The notes below the pieces were generated by a model. It saw only the letters and a program-made list of their open reading frames with translations, ran no database searches and had not been told where the DNA came from. This document shows, piece after piece, positions 1 to 50,216 of a stretch of 64,000 nt of DNA (positions are counted from its first letter, which is position 1; each line of letters begins with the position of its first letter). The stretch is from a virus, in IMG/VR virus record IMGVR_UViG_2935656913_000002, one strand, 5' to 3'. Position numbers and translations under genes: made by a program.

Positions 1-437
1 AAGACACGCCGCATTCCCCTGCTTTTCGCGAACCTTTGGTTGATGCGTTCCTCTAATTCTGGCTGATGTCTGCGGAGGTAACGGTCAACCAGTTCCGAAT
101 TCACTTCGCTCTCTGGGCGGATGCGGTACTCGTTTGCGGACGAATGCCCCGGCACTTCGCGGACCTCGATCAGGCCCTTACCCTTGAGATGCTTGAGACA
201 CTTGAGCAAGGTGGGTTCACTCATGTCGATTGGCCCAATGACCACCTCGCCGTCCGCGCTCAAGATGCCGTGCTTGAACTGGTTGAGCGAGATCGCTTCC
301 CATTCCTTTTGATAGAAGTGTGTTCTGCGGAAAATGAACCACAGAACCTCCCGCTCGTAGATGTCAGTGCAGAGATCGTATCCGTGCATGGTGCCCCGTA
401 GAATGCTCCATGACTCGCCCCAAGTCGGCTTAGCCAT
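1..437 (-). CDS. Replication initiator-like winged-helix protein, 5' part only (runs off the window start)
   Basis: Translated by hand; absent from the ORF track because there is no stop in the window. MAKPTWGESW...EREVLWFIFRRTHFYQKEWEAISLNQFKHG...LKHLKGKGLIEV resembles the N-terminus of lambda-O-like phage replication proteins. Confidence 0.6.
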   Translation of the reverse strand, partial: MAKPTWGESWSILRGTMHGYDLCTDIYEREVLWFIFRRTHFYQKEWEAISLNQFKHGILSADGEVVIGPIDMSEPTLLKCLKHLKGKGLIEVREVPGHSSANEYRIRPESEVNSELVDRYLRRHQPELEERINQRFAKSRGMRRV

Positions 438-519
438 ATACCCGCCCAAGAATGTAAGATGATCCGCCCTAATTGTACGGGCGGCGGCGAGGCTAACGCA
501 AGCGTAACGGGTTGGGTTG

Positions 520-876
520 TCAGCGCTTTTTGAGGCGGATGACGCGCCTATTTCGGAGACTTACAGTCGGCAGTTCGGGGGCCTGAGTTGCAGGGGCCTG
601 CACGGGAGAAATCCAGCTTAGCCCGACCAGCCGACAGAGCCGTTCGTGGTTGATCAGCGCGGCCTCGTAGTTATGGGCACGATATTCGCGGCCGCCATGT
701 TCGCCGCCGAATACCATGCTCTCGAACTGGCCGGTAATGTGGAGGAAGATGGTGCTTACGGAAGCGGGCTGGCCTTGAGTCGCCATGATCCGCCTCGATA
801 TAGGACGCTCGATTGCATCGAACATCAGTTCGGTTATCTCAACGCGGCAGAGCGTATCGTCAAGGACGAACGGCAT
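520..876 (-). CDS. Hypothetical protein
   Basis: ORF with likely start MPFVLDD; carries a palindrome copy (VQAPAT) and a basic C-terminal tail. Confidence 0.55.
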   Translation of the reverse strand: MPFVLDDTLCRVEITELMFDAIERPISRRIMATQGQPASVSTIFLHITGQFESMVFGGEHGGREYRAHNYEAALINHERLCRLVGLSWISPVQAPATQAPELPTVSLRNRRVIRLKKR

Positions 877-1024
877 CGAAGAACATCTGAGAGTATTGCC
901 ATGCCGCGAGGGCGAGGCCGCAGGCAATAAGGAACCAGAATAGAACCGGTGCCATATCGCCGCCCTTCTTGACCGTAGTCGGGGGTGGCGGCGGGGGAAC
1001 GATCTTGTGAGGGTTGCGTCTCAT
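860..1024 (-). CDS. Small membrane protein (54 aa)
   Basis: Hand-translated MRRNPHKIVPPPPPP...VLFWFLIACGLALAAW; its start overlaps the upstream stop (ATGA). Confidence 0.45.
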   Translation of the reverse strand: MRRNPHKIVPPPPPPTTVKKGGDMAPVLFWFLIACGLALAAWQYSQMFFDAVRP

Positions 1025-1122
1025 GTCAGCGCCCAATCCGCGAACCTACGCAAAAGGCCCGTGTTGTTGAGCAACACGAGCGCGCCGATGATGGTCAGCG
1101 AAATGATGACGAGATATTTCAC
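1021..1122 (-). CDS. Small membrane peptide (33 aa)
   Basis: GTG start overlapping the upstream stop; MKYLVIISLTIIGALVLLNN is hydrophobic. Confidence 0.4.
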   Translation of the reverse strand: MKYLVIISLTIIGALVLLNNTGLLRRFADWALT

Positions 1123-40158: not shown

Positions 40159-40644
40159 TCAGCGACTGTCGCGACGATTATGGCGCTGCTGAACACGATT
40201 GGCCCAACGACAATTATCGGGCTCATAATTCCCGTCAACGTCTGGGTAGCGATCAAGAGTAGTTCCGGCTGGTCGTTCCCCCATGTCGGTCAGAAAGTCA
40301 TTAAATGAGTTTAGCCACCGCTCGCAAACACGTATGCCGCGCGCACCATAATACTTATAGTTATCTGCGTCGGGATTGGTGCATCGCTTTTTCATACTCT
40401 GCCATGACAGATACGTTCGTGACGGAGATCGTTGCTTGTTGTGGCCATGGGTAACTTCTCGCGCCAAACAACCACACGACTTTATGTTCCCGGTCTTTAG
40501 ATGCGCCGCGCGCACGTCGATCAGTTTGCGACAAGCGCACCGACACATAAGTCTTGTATGGGTACCCGCATCTGGAATGACATGCAGTACCGTCAAGCGC
40601 CCGAACATCGAACCGGGTGAGTAAGTCGCACGCGGCCTCGCCAT
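40159..40644 (-). mobile_element. Second HNH homing-type endonuclease
   Basis: FGRLTV, CRCAC, SCGC, WQSMKKRC, YGARGIRVCERW, TLDR....GNYEPDNCRW; lower GC. Confidence 0.85.
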
Positions 40645-40648
40645 GGCG

Positions 40649-41023
40649 TCACTTCCGGTTACGCAGCGGGTTGGAGCCCATACGAAAAGCCCATAACGGG
40701 CAGACAACGTCCGAACACATGCGAGCACCTTTGGCGCCGCCCGCACAAAGAACGCAGAATGCGCGAATGCCCGTGGCCTTGCTGCGGATGCGGTTGCGGT
40801 AGGACTGCTCCATGTTGTCGCCTTTGTTCTGGGCGTTCCGCAACATGAGCACAAGATCGTCGGTTGGTACCGATGTGGGGTCCGCGCCAGCGTGAGCAAG
40901 ATAGCTGCACACTCGCAAGCCCGGCTTGTCGATCCCAGTAAGCACCGCGTCCGGACTTGGGATGTAGACCTTGGGCGTTTCAGTTGCAGGTGCCTGCAAT
41001 TCGCCGCGCTTCTTAATCGGCAT
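40649..41023 (-). CDS. Cys4 (putative zinc-binding) protein, paralog B
   Basis: IRAFCVLCAGG...RMCSDVVCPLWAFRMGSNP. Confidence 0.65.
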   Translation of the reverse strand: MPIKKRGELQAPATETPKVYIPSPDAVLTGIDKPGLRVCSYLAHAGADPTSVPTDDLVLMLRNAQNKGDNMEQSYRNRIRSKATGIRAFCVLCAGGAKGARMCSDVVCPLWAFRMGSNPLRNRK

Positions 41024-41552
41024 CGCTCGCTCCTTCTTCCGCCGCGTCCTCTTCCACAAGCGCGTCGTCGGCATCGAGTTCGAACTCGACACTCTCTACC
41101 GGTGCGAGCACCTTGCCAAAGAACGGGTTCGCGCCGAGGCGGAACGGCCACAAGGGGCAAGCAATAGCCTCACATGCGCGGACCTCAGAAGTCTGGCCAC
41201 CCATACAGTAGATGCAGAAGGCCCGAATGGCCGTTCCTTGGTTCTTAATACGCTTACGCGCTGTCTTGGTGACGTGATCACTAACCGCACTGTCATGGAT
41301 CAGTTCCTTCAGGGCTTTGACCGGTATCTCCTTCGGGTTCTTACCCTGATAGAGCAGCCTAAATTCGAGCGGCGCGATCCGCTCCTCAAGATCGAGGATG
41401 CGTTCGAAGTCTTTCTTGTTGTTGGCGTCGTCAAGTTCGACCAACAAGCCATAGTAGCCGCTCTCCGCGCGACGGAATTGCTTAAGGTCTTCCGCGCCGA
41501 AGCCATCGGACTTGAGTTGTTCGTCCGAGCGTATTTGTTTTTTCGTGAGCAT
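41013..41552 (-). CDS. Cys4 (putative zinc-binding) protein, paralog A
   Basis: IRAFCIYCMGG...RACEAIACPLWPFRLGANP. Confidence 0.65.
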   Translation of the reverse strand: MLTKKQIRSDEQLKSDGFGAEDLKQFRRAESGYYGLLVELDDANNKKDFERILDLEERIAPLEFRLLYQGKNPKEIPVKALKELIHDSAVSDHVTKTARKRIKNQGTAIRAFCIYCMGGQTSEVRACEAIACPLWPFRLGANPFFGKVLAPVESVEFELDADDALVEEDAAEEGASDAD

Positions 41553-42616: not shown

Positions 42617-42645
42617 ATTATACCGTATCGCAGATTTTTCGTCAA
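42617..42645 (-). promoter_or_regulatory. Near-consensus sigma70 promoter
   Basis: TTGACG-N17-TATAAT, then a GGAGG RBS before 42593. Confidence 0.75.
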
Positions 42646-42648
42646 TGA

Positions 42649-44775
42649 TTAGCGACGGTTAGTTGCCCGTCGGAACACCGACTTGCGCAGCGTGATATGT
42701 CGCGCAGTCTCGACCGATTTTGCAGGTTCCTGCACCGCTTCGCCATCCTTGGGCTTGGCGTCCGAACCGACGTTGATCTTGTTGAGGATCGGGCTCCACG
42801 CCACGCGGCGCTTCAGGAGGAACGATGTCACGCCGCAAACAGCGTCGGCAACGTCCTTAGTGCCATTGGATCGGTGATCGACCTTGTCCGGCTTGGTGCC
42901 CTGACTACGGACATACTCAAGACCGGCAAGCTCGTTCGCCAAGAACTGGAGCCGGGGCAGATACATCGCCCTGTCGTACATCGAGTCACGCAATGACCGG
43001 TAAGGATCGATCTGCTCGACCGAGAGGTAGTCCGCCTTGAAGCCCTTCGTCCGCAAAATCTGGCGGCTGTCCACCGACTGGAAGCCATCGAAGGTCACGT
43101 ACTCGATGGGCAACCCGAACTGGTCCCGCATCATGATCAGGAATTCACGGATGTGAGCGAACTCGATTTCACCATTCGGCGGTGGAATGCAACGCAAGAT
43201 GCAGTCAAAGCCCACAATCGGCTTCAATTCGCTGATCTTGAGCTTGGTAACGGGGTCAAACCGCTCAATGAGTTTCTGCCCGGCAATGTGGCCGATGGCG
43301 ATGCCGCAGGCGTCACGCGTGAGACCCATGTCGATATGGGCTGTGCGGAAAATCTTCAGATTGGTCTTGAGCAGTTCTCGCTTCGGCTTGGGGATGCCAA
43401 AATGGAAATCATATTGCTCATATTCGAACGGATTGACGTAGCCGTTCTCTGCCCCGTCGTTCATGCAGTCGTGGATGGAACTACGGCGGTTGATGAAAGG
43501 ACGAGAAGCAAGGATGGTGCGGCCAGCGTAGTCTCGCAGCGACCCGTCCAAGTCCCGCTCAAAGTCCACCCGAAAATCTTCTGGCACCTCGATAACGTCG
43601 CAGTCCGCAACGGTCGGTTCGTCCGCCGAGAGTATCTTGGATCGCACCATACTGTTGCCGACCATGACGCGGAACGTTTCGGGCAGGAACTGGTCCCTCC
43701 CCTTCACGTCCCAGATCGCCTTGGACATAACAAAGATGTTCGGGTCTGTGCCGCCCTGCATAGCGCTTTCGGCCGCCTTCGTTTCCGTGAAATCATCAGG
43801 GAAGCGAGACGACGAGATCAGGAACAGGAGGCCCGGCAGCTTGCCCTTCTTGGCGAAACGCGAGCGGCGACGGCGAGAGATGGCTTCGTAAATCGATTTT
43901 GCCTGACTAAACGAACCGTCGAGCCCCGCGTTCTGCGACTTCGATTTGAGCACCTTCTGCATGAAATTCATTTCGTCCAGAACGCCGCCGAGGATGTTCA
44001 TGGAGATAGCGCCGGTCGAGGATGACGACACTGGCAGCACGCGCAGCTTGTGTTCCGGAAAGATCATTTCGGTGGTGATCAGCTTGTTGTACGGGAAGAT
44101 GTATTTGAAGTACGGGCTCTGCTTGATCAGGCCGCCGAGTTCGTCAAAGACCGCTTTCTTGGCGGTCGCAAGTCGGATCGACTGAATAGAGAAAGCGATA
44201 CTGGCTCCCGACCGGATGCCGAACGTGGACTGCGGATGGCGCATGCAAGACAGCTTGTGGATGCCACGCACCATCATGATGTTCGACATGGTGGTCTTGC
44301 CGTAGCCGAGCGCGCCCTTGAGCACCGCTTCGACGTACTTGTCAGTATCGAGTTCAAGCATGGCCTCCAGGACACCCGGGAAGATTTCATCCCGTTTGAG
44401 TCCAAGATAGAAATTGCCGAAAATGAATTCCTCAAGATCGACGACCTTACGCCGGAACTCGGTCATTTCGATCAGAGCTTCGATGTTGCCGCTTTCGCGA
44501 AAAGTATCGACGCCGTCGAGCCAGAGATCGCGGGTCTCGTCGTCATCGAGTTGGTGCGCCTCCTCAATGATCTGATTGAGAATGAGCTGCGTCCGCTCGT
44601 CTAGACTCTTGTTAAAGTCGGCCGGAGATGCATGCTCAACCGGGCGCTTAAGATTGATCTTGCGGATATGCACGGCCGGTGCAGGCACCTGCAAGGTGAC
44701 CGCCTTGGGCAGGATGAGCCGGGGCTTCGGCAGGATACGGAAGCCGCTTTCCTTAACGATGGTGATCCCGACCAT
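42649..44775 (-). CDS. terL: Terminase large subunit
   Basis: Walker A GALGYGKT, Walker B VLDEMNF, RNase H-like nuclease HIDMG..RD, TFDGFQS, KDVADA. Confidence 0.92.
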   Translation of the reverse strand: MVGITIVKESGFRILPKPRLILPKAVTLQVPAPAVHIRKINLKRPVEHASPADFNKSLDERTQLILNQIIEEAHQLDDDETRDLWLDGVDTFRESGNIEALIEMTEFRRKVVDLEEFIFGNFYLGLKRDEIFPGVLEAMLELDTDKYVEAVLKGALGYGKTTMSNIMMVRGIHKLSCMRHPQSTFGIRSGASIAFSIQSIRLATAKKAVFDELGGLIKQSPYFKYIFPYNKLITTEMIFPEHKLRVLPVSSSSTGAISMNILGGVLDEMNFMQKVLKSKSQNAGLDGSFSQAKSIYEAISRRRRSRFAKKGKLPGLLFLISSSRFPDDFTETKAAESAMQGGTDPNIFVMSKAIWDVKGRDQFLPETFRVMVGNSMVRSKILSADEPTVADCDVIEVPEDFRVDFERDLDGSLRDYAGRTILASRPFINRRSSIHDCMNDGAENGYVNPFEYEQYDFHFGIPKPKRELLKTNLKIFRTAHIDMGLTRDACGIAIGHIAGQKLIERFDPVTKLKISELKPIVGFDCILRCIPPPNGEIEFAHIREFLIMMRDQFGLPIEYVTFDGFQSVDSRQILRTKGFKADYLSVEQIDPYRSLRDSMYDRAMYLPRLQFLANELAGLEYVRSQGTKPDKVDHRSNGTKDVADAVCGVTSFLLKRRVAWSPILNKINVGSDAKPKDGEAVQEPAKSVETARHITLRKSVFRRATNRR

Positions 44776-45392
44776 TAGCCCTTGGCTTCCACAACCTGTT
44801 TGACCATATTGTGCATGCGGTCGCGACTGGCCTGATCTTTCTTGACCCGGTTAAGGTCTTCCATGACCCCCGCCTCTTCCGCCGCTGCGACCGGCCGTCC
44901 GCCCTCGTTGATCCGGCCCCGCAACTTGCCAATCGTCTCGATGAGCTTCGTCGTGGCCTCAACGTCCTTAACCGTCGTCTGGAACAGCTTGCCCAAGTTC
45001 TTTTCGAGACCGACTTCGATCCCGAGACGGAGTTGCTGTATCTTCAGCAATTGCATCGCCGCCTGAAGCTCGTCAGGCATCGGCTGGTTCGGCTCGACTA
45101 ACCCGTCAAGGCCCTCCGCTTCGGCTTCCGCAATTGCTTCCGGATGCACCTTTCGGAAAGCACGGATGGCCTCCGCGAACGTACGCTCGTTAACATCGAT
45201 CCAGCCCTCGCGCGCCCAATGCGCCGCGACCTGCGCTGGCCCGACACCCGACTTGAGCGACGCGATCAGCAACTTGAACTTGGGATTGTTCGTGACAAGG
45301 CGCAGGAAGTACTTTTCCTGCGCCACTTTCTGACTTACGAGGCCCGGCCCGGTGAGGTTACGGGGTGGCAGTTTACGGACGGTGAGTGCCAT
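44775..45392 (-). CDS. Putative terminase small subunit
   Basis: Helical 205-aa protein translationally coupled to terL; called on position only. Confidence 0.55.
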   Translation of the reverse strand: MALTVRKLPPRNLTGPGLVSQKVAQEKYFLRLVTNNPKFKLLIASLKSGVGPAQVAAHWAREGWIDVNERTFAEAIRAFRKVHPEAIAEAEAEGLDGLVEPNQPMPDELQAAMQLLKIQQLRLGIEVGLEKNLGKLFQTTVKDVEATTKLIETIGKLRGRINEGGRPVAAAEEAGVMEDLNRVKKDQASRDRMHNMVKQVVEAKG

Positions 45393-45396
45393 GGCC

Positions 45397-46242
45397 CTAC
45401 TTCTTGGCTAGACGTGTTTCTCTGCGTTGAGCAACTTTATCCGATTTCTTGACCTTGCTCAAATCCGCGGTAGCGACGATCTGCTTCATGACATCCGCCA
45501 TGAGGAGCCCCTGCGATTTTACCCGCTCCTCAAGAGCTTCCATCATCTTGTTGAGTTGGTTGTCCGACTCAACGTAGTGATGCTTCTTGCCGCCGTAACT
45601 GAAAACAACAAACCCGTGATCCAGATCGGAGCCGTGCTCCTTGAAGATCGTGTGGATCACGGAGGACAACCCGTCCACGCTGGTGATGGTTTCTCGCGCC
45701 TCCTCCAGCTTTTTCTTTTGTGCCGGGTTGAGCGTCTTTTCGATGTTCTTATAGACCCGCTTGAACGCTTCGTCCTTCGTGAAACCCATTTGGAGCTTCA
45801 GGATCGAGGGGTCGTACTTTTTGGAAAGCTCGTTGTACAGTTGCGTGAACCTTTCCGGATTGAGGTTGCCGCGCATCTGGTTATCGCGGACTAGCGCGAA
45901 CTTCCGCTCGTCTTCGGTCCAGCCTTCTCGAACGACGCAAGGCACGTGAGTAAATTTGAGGACTTTCGCCGCCTTGAGGCGATGGTGGCCCGAGTACACA
46001 ATGTACTTGCCGGGCTCTTTGAGAGAAGGGATGACTTTGATTGGTTCGTCAAATCCCTTGTCCTTGATGACTTGGACGAGTTGATCGAACGTTTGCTCGT
46101 CTTGCTCATTCGGGTTTTCCTTGGACTCCAAAACGTCCTCAATCGGAATATCAAACACCTCAACGATGGTGCTCCGCTTAAGGACGGGCCTTGCTGCCAC
46201 GGTCGGGCGCTGGGCGGACAACTTCTTGATCGCGAGGGCCAT
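45397..46242 (-). CDS. ParB/Srx N-terminal-domain protein
   Basis: NPNEQD...F..L...I...GFDEPI.V, YSGHHRL.AAK.L, DNQMRG. Confidence 0.85.
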   Translation of the reverse strand: MALAIKKLSAQRPTVAARPVLKRSTIVEVFDIPIEDVLESKENPNEQDEQTFDQLVQVIKDKGFDEPIKVIPSLKEPGKYIVYSGHHRLKAAKVLKFTHVPCVVREGWTEDERKFALVRDNQMRGNLNPERFTQLYNELSKKYDPSILKLQMGFTKDEAFKRVYKNIEKTLNPAQKKKLEEARETITSVDGLSSVIHTIFKEHGSDLDHGFVVFSYGGKKHHYVESDNQLNKMMEALEERVKSQGLLMADVMKQIVATADLSKVKKSDKVAQRRETRLAKK

Positions 46243-46244
46243 GA

Positions 46245-47864
46245 TTACTTTGCCTTCTTAAGGATGACGGGACGTTTCTTAGTTGCAGGTCCCTGCAATT
46301 CGATTTTCTCGTCGGCGGTGAGAGGGATTGCCGGTATAGCCGCCGTATCAGGCATGATAGCACTATCGAATACATCGCGGCGAACAAAGGTATCAAGAGG
46401 ACCATCACAAGGGTCCACGAAACCGGCCAGCCCCATAGTGTGGTGAATGGCTCCGCGAGCGTAGGTAAAGGTTGTTCTGATCCCCATATCCCCAATGCTG
46501 ACCCCCATGTGCCCGGCCTTCTGAAGATAGGCAACCACGTCTGCGAACGTGTACTTTTTGCCCTTGAGTTCTTGGCAGAACCGGATGACCGCGCCGGAGG
46601 TCTTGAACCGGTTGATATGCCCCCTCGCCTGCACTTCGATCTCATCCGCGAGCGCGCTGATGCTCTTTTTGGCGTTGTACTTCTCGCGGATGGTATCCCG
46701 CCATGGCAGGATCATATCGCGAGCCTCTTGCTTGTTCTCCCTGATCCACATGAGGGTCGCTAGTAGAGCCGCCTTGTCCTTCGGCTCAATGACAAAAGGG
46801 TAATCCTTGAAGAAGGATTGCTGATAGTCAGAGACCGGAATAACACCGGGAAGCCCCATGTAAAGAGCCTCAAACAGTCCGGTAGGATGATCAAGATGAG
46901 ACATAGGGCAAATAAAAGCATGGTAACCCCTCAGTTGCCGGATAAAGTTTGCCCGATTGTTATTTTCGAGGATGCGGAACTGTTTCCCAAGGTTAGCAAA
47001 ATCAAATCCAATCTTGCTAAGTTTGCTGCGCATCGGTCCCCCAAGCGCACCAGAGAGGGAGATGGTGAGACGTACGTCTTCCATCCCCGACTTGAACAGG
47101 TAATCAAACCAAGGAAGGTACTCAATATAACTAACGCCAAAAATGCGACCGATACTAACAACGTTAAAACCACTCTCGTATTTCCAGCGGTCGGGGTCGT
47201 AGAGGGGATCGAGTTGGTCGCACTCGATACCTGCCGGGATAATTTTCGATTGCTTGTGCGCGAATTCATTGACCCGGCTCGTTACAAAGATTTCCGCCAT
47301 TTCCTTAGTGACTTCCGCCCGATTGTGGTCGGAGAGGAAGACGGTCGAGTCAGAGGCAAGGTACCCAAGGCACTGGGAAAGCCAGTACGCCTCGCCGGAA
47401 TTCTGTCGCTGCTGCGTCTGCGGGAATTCTTCGATAAGAACAACGGGCATTCCATAGCCCTTGTCAGTGTAATTGCCACCATTGTCGTGGAACCGTGGCG
47501 GCTCCAAGATACGTTTGTAATGGGCGGCGAGAGAGTTCCGCGAGGTACATAGCACGTCAACGTGATACTTGCCCGCAACTCGATTGAACAGATTAAAAAA
47601 CTCGTCCGTAACCAGCCCATCCACCACGAACTGATCTTGAATAGCAGTGGTACGGATGATCCCGACATGAGGGTGGTTCTCGATTTCGTCGGGGGTGTAC
47701 TTGGCTTCGTCAGGTACCATCCAGTAGACATAGTGACCTCGCTTAACGAGTTCGCGGACAAGCGTCACGTACTTGCGGTAGGTGCTGGACCCTGAGAGAT
47801 TGCTGATTTGAACGTAGACAGGGTCGATCAATATCCGCAAACGCGGCCTATAGACTTCGGGCAC
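46245..47864 (-). CDS. GT-B (GT4-like) glycosyltransferase
   Basis: LV.RGH.V, IIPAGI, SIGRI, AFICP......PTGLFEALYMGLPGV (EAxxxGxPV motif). Confidence 0.75.
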   Translation of the reverse strand: MPEVYRPRLRILIDPVYVQISNLSGSSTYRKYVTLVRELVKRGHYVYWMVPDEAKYTPDEIENHPHVGIIRTTAIQDQFVVDGLVTDEFFNLFNRVAGKYHVDVLCTSRNSLAAHYKRILEPPRFHDNGGNYTDKGYGMPVVLIEEFPQTQQRQNSGEAYWLSQCLGYLASDSTVFLSDHNRAEVTKEMAEIFVTSRVNEFAHKQSKIIPAGIECDQLDPLYDPDRWKYESGFNVVSIGRIFGVSYIEYLPWFDYLFKSGMEDVRLTISLSGALGGPMRSKLSKIGFDFANLGKQFRILENNNRANFIRQLRGYHAFICPMSHLDHPTGLFEALYMGLPGVIPVSDYQQSFFKDYPFVIEPKDKAALLATLMWIRENKQEARDMILPWRDTIREKYNAKKSISALADEIEVQARGHINRFKTSGAVIRFCQELKGKKYTFADVVAYLQKAGHMGVSIGDMGIRTTFTYARGAIHHTMGLAGFVDPCDGPLDTFVRRDVFDSAIMPDTAAIPAIPLTADEKIELQGPATKKRPVILKKAK

Positions 47865-47968: not shown

Positions 47969-48355
47969 TTACACGCTACGATTGGACATGAAGTCATTGA
48001 GCTTGTGCTCCACCACGTCCTCAAGAAGCGCGAGATTTTCGCCCGCGAGTTCCTTCGCCAGCATGAGTAGATGCTTGCCCTCGGCGTCGCGGCCGATCAC
48101 GTCGCCCGGGATGATAACGAAGCCATCGACCTTGAGACCGACGCCGATATCGCCGCCCTTCTCGGTGATCACGACGTTGGGCCAGAACGCCGAGCGCTTC
48201 GCCTCATCGAGCGTCAGCCGCTTGCGGCGCGGGGTGGCGAGTACTTCCCCGTTTTCGTCGGGAGTTGCAGGGGCCTGCAATTCGAGCTTCGCCACATCCG
48301 CTGACGTGACGGTTTCCGAGATCGAGAGAGATTTATCGGCCATAATCGGCTCCAC
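47969..48355 (-). CDS. Hypothetical protein
   Basis: 128-aa ORF with normal codon use. Confidence 0.6.
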   Translation of the reverse strand: MEPIMADKSLSISETVTSADVAKLELQAPATPDENGEVLATPRRKRLTLDEAKRSAFWPNVVITEKGGDIGVGLKVDGFVIIPGDVIGRDAEGKHLLMLAKELAGENLALLEDVVEHKLNDFMSNRSV

Positions 48356-48382: not shown

Positions 48383-48757
48383 TTAGATCACTGGGCACAA
48401 GATGACGCGCTTCTTGAGCACCATGCAGCGCTGTAAGAGCGGGACCATGGCCGCGAACAGCCCGTCCCAGAACACGACGACCGCATCCGCTTCGTTGATG
48501 ATCGCGAGGTTGCGCGTATCGAACACCTGTTGCGCGGTGATCTTGACCCCGCTATCGCTCTGGTAGTTTGGGGGGATGGGAGTGAAGTCGATGCCGTTCT
48601 CCTTGGCGTACGCTTCCGCGAGTGCTTCGACACCCTTGCCGCCGCCCGCGATAATGCCCGTTAGATCGGGAATAGCCCCCAAGCAACCGGCCACATGTTG
48701 TTTGTTGGTGTACAACTGGAACCGCAACTCGCGAGGGCCGAACACTGCATAGCGCAT
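48383..48757 (-). CDS. SLOG-superfamily (YspA/DUF2493-like) protein
   Basis: AVFGPR, IIAGGGKGVEALAE.YA...GI, RN..I...D.VVVFWDG. Confidence 0.75.
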   Translation of the reverse strand: MRYAVFGPRELRFQLYTNKQHVAGCLGAIPDLTGIIAGGGKGVEALAEAYAKENGIDFTPIPPNYQSDSGVKITAQQVFDTRNLAIINEADAVVVFWDGLFAAMVPLLQRCMVLKKRVILCPVI

Positions 48758-49069: not shown

Positions 49070-49606
49070 CTAATCTCCATCGATGACAGAAAAATCACCG
49101 TCGATCACTGTCCCCTCGCCGTCCGAAGGAACGCCGCCCTTGAATTCCTTGTCGAACATTTGCCGCGTCTTGGCGGGCTCACTGGGCCGGGGTACCGCGA
49201 TATAGTGCCGGTGCACGTGCACGGGCTTAGGTTCGTCCTCAGTGGCGGTAGGCAGTTGGTTGATGACGCGGGAGATGGCCGAGTACTCGCCGTACGCGTT
49301 GACGTATACCGTAGTCTCGATCTCGACCTTGTCGCGGGCAAAACTCGTCTCGTTCTCGGTGACGGCCCGAACCATGCTGACCGTACGGTTGCCCTTTTGG
49401 GTCGGGACCGAGATAACCAGCCCCTCGCTCTTGAGCCGCTGCACTTGCGCGTTGACGCTCTGATATTCTTCCTTGAGGGAGTTCGCGATCTGGGTGATGG
49501 TCATGTCACCCTTCTCTTTAAGCTCCCGGAAAATGCGGCCTGAAAGCATCCCGATCTTGAGGAGCGGATGGCGGCCCTTGGTGACGCGGCGGTTCTGTAA
49601 ACTCAT
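49070..49606 (-). CDS. Winged helix-turn-helix protein
   Basis: MTITQIANSLKEEYQSVNAQVQRLKSEGLV. Confidence 0.7.
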   Translation of the reverse strand: MSLQNRRVTKGRHPLLKIGMLSGRIFRELKEKGDMTITQIANSLKEEYQSVNAQVQRLKSEGLVISVPTQKGNRTVSMVRAVTENETSFARDKVEIETTVYVNAYGEYSAISRVINQLPTATEDEPKPVHVHRHYIAVPRPSEPAKTRQMFDKEFKGGVPSDGEGTVIDGDFSVIDGD

Positions 49607-49911: not shown

Positions 49912-49985
49912 TAGTCACTCTCTCGAAAGCTCGAACAGGTAGTCGGAGCCTTCGGGTTAATTATTATCGCAGATTATTAGCCGTG

Positions 49986-50216
49986 TCAAGCCGCGAGAAC
50001 CGGCGCGAGATGTTTCACGTATTCGTGGCCGTGCCTCGTAAGGACCAGAAGCATCGATGTACAGTCGAGCTTGATCAGGTTCTCATGCTTCAGCAGGTAA
50101 ATAGCGTTCTGCTCCATTTGCGCCTTACTGCGCGTCGGCTGTTGGCCCTTGGAAATCTCCACAAGGATACGTGTCGCTATTGCCCGCACGTTCTTGGTTG
50201 GTTTTTCATTTCTCAT
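49986..50216 (-). CDS. Small hypothetical protein (possible wHTH)
   Basis: 76-aa ORF; LLKHENLI pattern. Confidence 0.5.
   Translation of the reverse strand: MRNEKPTKNVRAIATRILVEISKGQQPTRSKAQMEQNAIYLLKHENLIKLDCTSMLLVLTRHGHEYVKHLAPVLAA

Follow-up and report, generated by a model that had tools for sequence, protein, structure and literature searches.

The 64,000-nucleotide stretch analyzed here (the window) corresponds to positions 7770-71769, read on the reverse strand, of the single 101,364-bp viral contig of IMG/VR record IMGVR_UViG_2935656913_000002, which derives from a soil phage and is classed in IMG/VR as a provirus of 93% completeness. On its minus strand, which carries almost all of the window's genes, it encodes a glycosyltransferase (GT, 539 aa, 46245-47864) followed by a ParB-N (ParB/Srx) protein (281 aa, 45397..46242), a putative small terminase subunit (TerS-like open reading frame (ORF), 205 aa, 44775..45392), and the large terminase subunit (TerL, 708 aa, 42649..44775). 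We propose, with a probability of roughly 40%, that the GT and the ParB protein could constitute a two-component system that glycosylates the phage's own DNA with the assistance of ParB. DNA glycosylation is the best single explanation because it draws together the fixed pairing of the GT with ParB, the occurrence of ParB-N fusions with DNA methyltransferases, the presence of a winged-helix domain in the GT, and the strong conservation of the GT. What is surprising is that so strictly conserved a pair has no known acceptor. The four genes are transcribed in the order GT, ParB, TerS-like, TerL, separated by 2 nt and by 4 nt at the first two junctions and overlapping by 1 nt (TAATG) at the third, so that the coordinates, strand, and order of the tightly coupled genes described in the original prediction, which had been made from the letters of the window, are confirmed.

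The pairing of GT and ParB recurs wherever relatives of either protein were read. Among cultured phages, the provirus is most closely related to JP1 of Agrobacterium and to the RcF phages of Rhodobacter capsulatus (RcDurkin, RcTiptonus, RcKickapoo, and RcMenchie), all of which share the order DprA-like (SLOG) protein, GT, small ORF, ParB-like nuclease, hypothetical protein, and terminase. JP1 and the RcF phages have a GT of 59-66% identity, and ParB is 28-43% identical across the cultured phages that bear the array (26% in RcZahn); among metagenomic relatives, more than 120 have a GT that is 52-87% identical. Both genes are present in 30 of 30 related loci, in which the GT, at 54-80% identity to the provirus protein, is the best-conserved protein of the module, compared with 46-75% for TerL, 34-69% for the portal, 38-68% for ParB, and 23-57% for the TerS-like ORF. 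The more distant GT homologues with a readable context, namely those of loci L035, L037, L039, and L042 and of phages DLP3 and DanielleIgnace, all adjoin a ParB homologue, and these ParB proteins are 28-37% identical to that of the provirus (E 1e-32 to 1e-53). In the case of L042, the GT is followed by a small Cpn10 (GroES-like) ORF and by a ParB homologue absent from the precomputed Pfam list.

The reverse test, starting from ParB, leads to the same arrangement. There are 22 records of the ParB subfamily in cultured phages, which infect Rhodobacter, Agrobacterium, Rhizobium, Stenotrophomonas, Vibrio, and Arthrobacter, and in each of the 11 contexts read, the gene immediately upstream of ParB is GT4-like and encodes 480-530 aa. 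The longer order of GT, ParB, an ORF of ~190-270 aa, and TerL is found in all nine cultured proteobacterial phages read, including RcZahn, which is circularly permuted and whose array spans the arbitrary genome start, and both Arthrobacter phages read (KellEzio and DanielleIgnace) show only the GT followed by ParB. Since the pairing is found both from the GT side and from the ParB side, GT and ParB are a fixed pair, and the comparison of sequences supports the view that they are a functional one. The array of the provirus is its minimal form, consisting of GT and ParB without sugar-tailoring genes, to which relatives add a deacetylase, epimerase, aminotransferase, or methyltransferase. For example, L035 encodes a GT, a GNAT protein, an amine oxidase, and a PIG-L deacetylase, then a methyltransferase, ParB, and the terminase region; L037 and L038 have GT, PIG-L, and ParB; and in L039 and L040 the GT and then ParB lie within a complete nucleoside diphosphate (NDP)-amino-sugar pathway, with the ParB gene placed between the GT and a sugar reductase. 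The pair also occurs in metagenomic phages that are unrelated to this clade, often accompanied by genes for sugar tailoring.

The GT adopts a GT-B fold of the GT4 type. Its AlphaFold model (predicted local distance difference test score (pLDDT) 80, predicted template-modeling score (pTM) 0.84) contains two Rossmann-like domains, and a Foldseek search of the PDB retrieves GT4/GT5 GT-B enzymes at E 9e-12 to 1e-9, with template-modeling (TM) scores by target of 0.69-0.77, which upholds the GT4-like assignment first made for this protein. In sequence searches, the NCBIfam EpsE GT4 model matches at 2.5e-7, and Pfam Glycos_transf_1 (PF00534) gives an E-value of 0.002 and 18.1 bits, under the cut-off of 26.4, which the GT relative in KellEzio clears with 38 bits. 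The GT-B catalytic part spans residues 1 to ~419 (46608..47864, minus strand). Residues H323, D325, and E332, the last two forming a D-x6-E arrangement, are invariant in 26 homologues where an acidic motif of the E-x7-E type is expected, and may be catalytic. After the catalytic fold there is a domain of ~110 residues that, folded alone, has a pLDDT of 79 and is winged-helix-like (residues ~420-510; 46335..46607, minus strand); the best VIA-align match has a Z-score of 5.9 and a root mean square deviation of 3.6 over 77 aligned residues, and nearly all rows are winged helices. This domain is kept in the alignment of distant family members. It is followed by a basic C-terminal tail (46245..46334, minus strand), which holds a 14-bp palindrome (46284-46297) read as LQGPA; the tail was considered as a family mark of DNA binding and set aside, being found in the close clade only and not in distant members. 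A profile of the GT family collects 444 representatives from 1.8 billion proteins, most of them 460-510 aa long with the winged-helix domain covered. The selfish insertions seen in module genes of relatives include a LAGLIDADG intein in one GT family member (P0219). The GT gene had also been described as AT-richer in its middle than at its ends, and this is real though modest, with a GC content of 0.48-0.49 at 46800-47250 versus 0.55-0.57 at the ends. The dip lies in third codon positions, where GC is 0.44-0.58 for codons 201-350 versus a genome median of 0.70, and it therefore points to a mosaic origin or to weaker codon adaptation and not to amino-acid composition.

The ParB protein consists of an N-domain with GHHR and a Box-III-like NxxR, a degenerate helix-turn-helix (HTH)-like stretch, and a C-terminal domain that carries a basic tail; the GHHR (GxxR motif) and N..RG elements are conserved in the ParB alignment. 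It matches Pfam ParB_N at 1.2e-8 (35.4 bits versus a cut-off of 26.3) and phrog_26387 at 7e-59, and its N-domain also matches phrog_498, a family in which this domain is joined to DNA methyltransferases. Proteins of the ParB family act as clamps on DNA. In a phmmer search of the PDB, residues 29-172 align with Helicobacter pylori ParB at 6e-10, with residues 130-172 reaching into the HTH region of that protein, and there are further matches to Noc, KorB, and, weakly, sulfiredoxin. The association of ParB-N proteins with DNA-modifying enzymes of phages, which the original prediction had taken as established, agrees with the published record, in which ParB-like proteins activate dioxygenases whose neighbors include GT, ParB, and terminase genes (PMC13229309).

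We infer from these features a DNA acceptor, a helper role for ParB, a donor sugar, and a time of action. In the proposed mechanism, the ParB-fold protein would act as a nucleotide-gated DNA clamp or loader that binds replicated phage DNA, and it would open access for, or activate, the GT4-like enzyme, which may be held on nucleic acid by its winged-helix domain and basic tail. The GT would then move a hexose or N-acetylhexosamine from a host NDP-sugar onto DNA, and the tailoring enzymes of relatives would modify that sugar, the provirus having GT and ParB only. The placement of the pair in one expression block with TerS and TerL suggests that the DNA would be marked after replication and before packaging; this coupling to packaging is proposed from gene order alone.

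Several lines of evidence weigh against DNA as the acceptor, and the first is the lack of an enzyme that would prepare a base for glycosylation. It had been noted that no base hydroxylase or hydroxymethylase is visible in the window, and this holds and extends to the whole 101-kb genome. A six-frame search of the whole genome with Tet_JBP (PF12851) gives no match at E up to 10, although a very divergent dioxygenase could still hide in unannotated ORFs, and the same search with Thymidylat_synt (PF00303) gives none at E up to 10, with positive controls in 10 of 14 genomes. Together with the ORF scans, these searches reveal no TET/JBP gene and no dCMP or dUMP hydroxymethylase gene. Pfam scans of ~110 ORFs of the genome detect no ThyX, TGT, DNA methyltransferase, 5-hydroxymethyluracil kinase, or amino-acid:DNA transferase. 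The annotation of JP1 contains no acceptor-making enzyme either, and there is no TET/JBP dioxygenase among the neighbors of distant GT homologues. No GT-B enzyme is known to glycosylate a canonical DNA base. Two candidates for an acceptor-making enzyme were considered and rejected. The ~310-aa ORFs without a Pfam match that lie directly upstream of the GT in L035 and L037 might have been a hidden dioxygenase, and their homologue is not an oxygenase but a provirus protein that combines a SWIM zinc finger with an MgsA_C-like region (486 aa; genome positions 90276-91736, plus strand, outside the window). The DLP3 gp141 "thymidylate synthase" (L045:28757-29533) matches dual-specificity phosphatase families only, and DLP3 is without a true thymidylate-synthase homologue.

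The composition of the genome is a further consideration. Sites for CTGCAG (PstI), CTCGAG (XhoI), AGATCT (BglII), GGATCC (BamHI), GAGCTC (SacI), and GGGCCC (ApaI) number zero in the genome; over the same length CCGCGG (SacII), GCCGGC (NaeI), CGATCG (PvuI), GACGTC (AatII), and GTCGAC (SalI) have observed-to-expected ratios of 0.11 or less, and GANTC occurs 57 times versus 378 expected. GGTACC is enriched, being a common center of the 14-bp palindrome discussed below. Such extreme avoidance is the pattern expected for DNA that is exposed to restriction enzymes. The idea that the locus hypermodifies DNA is supported in part: the GT-ParB functional pair stands, and the near-complete avoidance of many 6-bp palindromes and of GANTC argues against heavy modification, so that a mark is more likely to be sparse or context-specific than a global shield. 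Phages DLP3 and DLP5, which carry the array, have DNA reported to be refractory to restriction enzymes (PMC7326821, PMC5834331), which is a hint in favor of modification. As proof of hypermodification this resistance is weakened, as most of the sites tested are missing from the sequence: the published DLP3 test used 15 enzymes, and 10 of them lack any site in 69 kb (71%) of the DLP3 genome. SmaI and ClaI, with 44 and 15 sites in those 69 kb, should both still have cut. The R21Y paper does not mention DNA modification.

The nearest solved folds are likewise a point for another kind of acceptor, as they are sucrose-phosphate synthase, BshA, PglA, PimA, and WaaG, enzymes with small-molecule, lipid, or sugar acceptors. 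It is conceivable, if on balance unlikely, that the GT acts on a small molecule or on a host envelope glycan or lipid, such as a BshA/MshA-like N-acetylglucosamine (GlcNAc) conjugate or the lipopolysaccharide (LPS) core, and that ParB is a chance neighbor from packaging or partition. This reading and the glycosylation of a protein, discussed below, are the two rivals of substance. In addition to BshA, PimA, WaaG, and sucrose-phosphate synthase among the best structural matches, the sets of GT4, PIG-L, and GNAT or ATP-grasp genes in relatives mirror the mycothiol and bacillithiol pathways, which again counts against DNA; modification of LPS was proposed by the DLP3 authors, and lysogenic conversion is conceivable for a provirus with an integrase. 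However, moron genes are normally variable, whereas this GT is the best-conserved protein of its module and the virulent RcF phages have it too, and a specific ParB subfamily that is paired with it across unrelated phages, and that is found inside the sugar operon of L039, makes coincidence unlikely. The envelope is further disfavored by the absence of a membrane segment, flippase, or Gtr-type partner, and by a winged-helix domain that is the family's own.

The winged-helix domain is itself a weak match (Z below 8), a Foldseek search with it gives a best row at E 0.19, the weak rows also being winged helices, and winged helices bind proteins as well as DNA. Indeed, protein-binding winged helices (cullin WHB) rank as high as DNA-binding ones, which would suit a GT that glycosylates a protein, with the domain docking to it, whether a virion protein (as with the mycobacteriophage capsid or tail tube) or DNA-bound ParB, TerS, or portal. 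We consider this improbable, although the genes head the late and packaging block, the methyltransferase, deacetylase, and aminotransferase genes beside the GT in relatives are as in protein glycosylation systems, and the avoidance of restriction sites suits unmodified DNA. Virion glycosylation leaves the obligate ParB partner unexplained. Glycosylated mycobacteriophage capsids have Ser/Thr-rich C-terminal extensions, and the capsid and tube candidates of the provirus have no such extension, though this is a weak point, and neither GT nor ParB appears among the DLP3 virion proteins in the portion of the published table that was covered. A last point against DNA as the acceptor is that ParB genes often adjoin terminase genes for reasons that may be unrelated to the GT.

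Glycosylation of RNA or of a free nucleotide would be very unlikely by our estimate. Here the GT might act on a tRNA base, by comparison with the GT4-family queuosine mannosyltransferase, or on a defense-signaling nucleotide, together with the SLOG-superfamily (YAcAr, "DprA-like") protein encoded upstream (124 aa, 48383..48757, minus strand; Pfam YAcAr E 1.2e-5, below cut-off). This gene is the conserved upstream neighbor of the GT in the clade, with a "DprA-like" gene at the same position in JP1 and RcKickapoo, and nucleotides or NAD derivatives are the predicted ligands or substrates of SLOG/YAcAr proteins; there are also weak GT4-conflict matches in relatives, and the winged-helix domain and basic tail would suit RNA as well. 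Against this, the SLOG gene, unlike the ever-present ParB, is missing in L018, L031, and L033 and in the distant GT-ParB phages, no queuosine or 7-deazaguanine genes are found in the ORF scans of the genome, and the ParB family is one of clamps on DNA.

If DNA is indeed the target, one rather doubtful form of the proposal is that the ParB-loaded enzyme, with its GT4 and winged-helix parts, glycosylates DNA without a hydroxymethylated base, which would constitute a new acceptor chemistry; the acceptor might then be a canonical base, the DNA at an end or nick, or a base that some unrecognised enzyme has prepared. A sparse mark of this kind would distinguish phage DNA for packaging or protect it from phage or host nucleases and would not be a global anti-restriction coat. 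If ParB-assisted DNA glycosylation is correct, the module would be common to phages of at least six bacterial genera (in the Alpha- and Gammaproteobacteria and the Actinomycetota), it would represent a widespread phage DNA glycosylation that needs neither thymidylate-synthase-type hydroxymethylases nor TET/JBP dioxygenases, and it would extend the helper role of ParB-like proteins from oxidases to glycosyltransferases. Even if DNA is not the target, the strict conservation of GT and ParB as a pair beside the packaging genes calls for an explanation. Its carriers include easily grown phages (the RcF phages, RcZahn, JP1, Rhizobium RHph, DLP3/DLP5, and Vibrio and Arthrobacter phages). In practice, such modifications influence how phage DNA can be sequenced, cloned, and mapped with restriction enzymes, as well as the host range of candidates for phage therapy such as DLP3.

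It had further been suggested that ParB might target the modification by means of "2-kb palindromes". Repeated palindromes do exist, and their length was mistaken: they are 14-bp sites, TGCAGGNNCCTGCA, that lie ~2 kb apart, and no inverted repeats of 40 bp or more were detected. Between 589 and 63584, the window contains 34 sites within one mismatch versus 0.19 expected, 31 of them exact copies, and the whole genome contains 49 exact sites with a mean spacing of 2004 bp and a coefficient of variation of 0.46, which is more even than chance. Relatives have variants that keep the outer TGCA and differ in the inner bases, such as TGCAAACGTTTGCA in JP1, TGCAATCGATTGCA in RcKickapoo, and others, and the palindromes are thus a clade-wide feature with a co-evolving reader. 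ParB is not supported as that reader. The palindrome excess is absent in a sublineage (L018, L031, and L033) and in the distant GT-ParB phages L035, L037, and L039, all of which keep the pair, so that the palindromes are separable from GT-ParB; moreover, the HTH-like stretch of ParB is kept in palindrome-free relatives and shows no covariation with palindrome class in the alignment. Gene trees cannot single out the reader, because all of them agree with the palindrome classes. The SLOG gene upstream of the GT is the only one seen to be missing from the palindrome-free sublineage: it is kept in palindrome-bearing relatives and is absent from L018, L031, and L033 despite 10 kb of upstream flank there; this co-loss is a single loss event and serves as a lead only.

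With regard to the packaging genes, the TerS-like ORF is helical and is labeled a putative TerS from its position and size. It has no match in Pfam, PHROG-function, NCBIfam, or PDB searches; language-model (Atlas feature) leads point to the Terminase_5 and Mu gp27 clusters at 0.91-0.93, and an ORF of 200-270 aa occupies the same position in DLP3, RHph_TM16, RcZahn, KarBoss, and VH2_2019. TerL is divergent, with no match in Pfam, PHROG, or solved-structure (PDB) sequence and profile searches, and it is recognized by its motifs, its homology to DLP3, and its position upstream of the portal gene. Across 17 sequences it has an invariant Walker A motif (G154..G159 K160 T162), Walker B motif (D267 E268), and SSS321-323, as well as invariant nuclease-type aspartates at positions 482, 563, 633, 641, and 644. 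In a tblastn comparison it is 34% identical to the annotated DLP3 terminase (1e-100), hhalign gives a 58% probability (E 1e-4) for the nuclease end of a Terminase_6 TerL, and the counterparts in JP1 and the RcF phages bear a terminase annotation. The TerL of L037 (18708-21026) carries an intein, and the RcKickapoo terminase is 1046 aa long (L002:2580-5720). A pyruvate-phosphate-dikinase-like gene lies near the terminase in DLP3, RHph_TM16, VH2_2019, and RcZahn and was not found in the provirus genome. The RcF phages are described as virulent siphoviruses of ~94 kb with P1-like headful packaging (PMC8601537).

Upstream of the GT, the block also contains a 128-aa ORF without a family match (47969..48355, minus strand), which separates the GT from the SLOG gene, and a MarR/TrmB-like winged-helix regulator (178 aa, 49070..49606, minus strand; weak Pfam HTH_24 and MarR_2 matches), whose homologues occur in JP1 and several relatives, including palindrome-free ones. 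Two promoter-like sites on the coding strand, both consensus matches only, flank the GT-to-TerL block: one at 49989-49960 (49960..49989, minus strand; TTGACA, 18 nt, AATAAT; 11/12) ahead of the genes down to TerL, and one at 42645-42617 (42617..42645, minus strand) right behind the TerL stop. Downstream, an HNH endonuclease gene lies between TerL and the portal gene (40159-41160, minus strand; phrog_374, 5e-54) and looks like a recent insertion, as a homologue is found in L007 only among the 30 related loci. The Pfam scan of the ~110 genome ORFs further identifies a replication module (DnaB, PolA, primase, helicase, RecA, and RuvC), an AAA protein, DUF1643, PC4, and an integrase. The integrase is a tyrosine integrase at the contig end (genome positions 1-1074, minus strand, outside the window), and the related RcF phages are reported to be virulent. 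The DUF1643 protein is encoded just before DNA polymerase I (genome positions 74946-75608, plus strand, outside the window) and is common to DLP3; it was considered as a DNA-glycosylase-like enzyme and set aside, as it has no solved relative and the only lead is bacterial fusions of DUF1643 with ADP-ribosylglycohydrolase (Atlas).

The GT-ParB module can be compared with several known systems. The T4 alpha- and beta-glucosyltransferases, to which a parallel had been drawn, are similar in being phage-encoded enzymes of the GT-B fold that use a host uridine diphosphate (UDP)-sugar, and the analogy holds at this level. Kinship does not, as the nearest folds are those of the GT4 enzymes BshA, PimA, PglA, and sucrose-phosphate synthase; the T4 families (PF11440 and PF09198) give no Pfam match to the provirus GT at E up to 0.01, and T4 beta-GT is not among the best 50 Foldseek rows, although the two may be distantly related. 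T4 needs hydroxymethylcytosine made before replication, whereas the provirus genome has no dCMP or dUMP hydroxymethylase match, and the T4 enzymes have neither a ParB partner nor a winged-helix domain. BshA and MshA, with the PIG-L deacetylases BshB and MshB, are the best structural class, and in relatives of the provirus the GT is likewise followed by a PIG-L deacetylase, in some with GNAT or ATP-grasp, a combination that suggests transfer of GlcNAc followed by de-N-acetylation and re-acylation. In contrast to BshA/MshA, to which its identity is 12-16% only, the GT family is phage-borne, has an extra winged helix and an obligate ParB, and is located at packaging genes, and the provirus genome encodes no counterpart of the BshB/MshB deacetylases. 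The same gene order is seen in the annotated but uncharacterised arrays of JP1, RcDurkin/RcTiptonus/RcKickapoo, RcZahn, RHph_TM16, DLP3/DLP5, Vibrio VH2_2019, and KarBoss, from which the provirus differs in having no tailoring genes, its own palindrome variant, and an HNH gene between TerL and portal.

The closest functional comparison is with modification clusters built around dioxygenases. For one subclass of phage thymine dioxygenases, ParB-like proteins serve as activators on double-stranded DNA (O'Toole et al., PNAS 2026, PMC13229309), and the commonest neighbors of those dioxygenases are GT (31%), ParB (27%), and terminase (19%) genes, with endonuclease genes also among them (PMC13229309). 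The 5mYOX176/ParB176 clusters of that study resemble the provirus module in having a ParB-N gene beside a modification-type enzyme, a GT in the block just upstream of the terminase, sugar-tailoring genes (in the relatives of the provirus), and a modification that is expected to be post-replicative. They differ in their defining feature, since the provirus genome has no 5mYOX/TET-JBP or thymidylate-synthase homologue and its ParB pairs with the GT itself; the published activators are also described as having no DNA-binding domain, whereas the provirus ParB retains a segment alignable to the HTH region of chromosomal ParB. Phage GT-A and GT-B enzymes encoded beside 5mYOX or thymidylate-synthase homologues glycosylate hydroxymethylated bases (bioRxiv 10.1101/2023.12.21.572611), and these are JGT-like GT-A or T4-beta-GT-like GT-B proteins, whereas the provirus GT is a GT4-like enzyme with a winged helix. 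In that study ~65% of the mined GT contigs have no 5mYOX/ThyS neighbor and were left unexplained, and the provirus GT-ParB module falls in this class. By analogy, then, the module would work most like a ParB-dependent 5mYOX cluster combined with the phage DNA glycosyltransferases linked to 5mYOX or ThyS.

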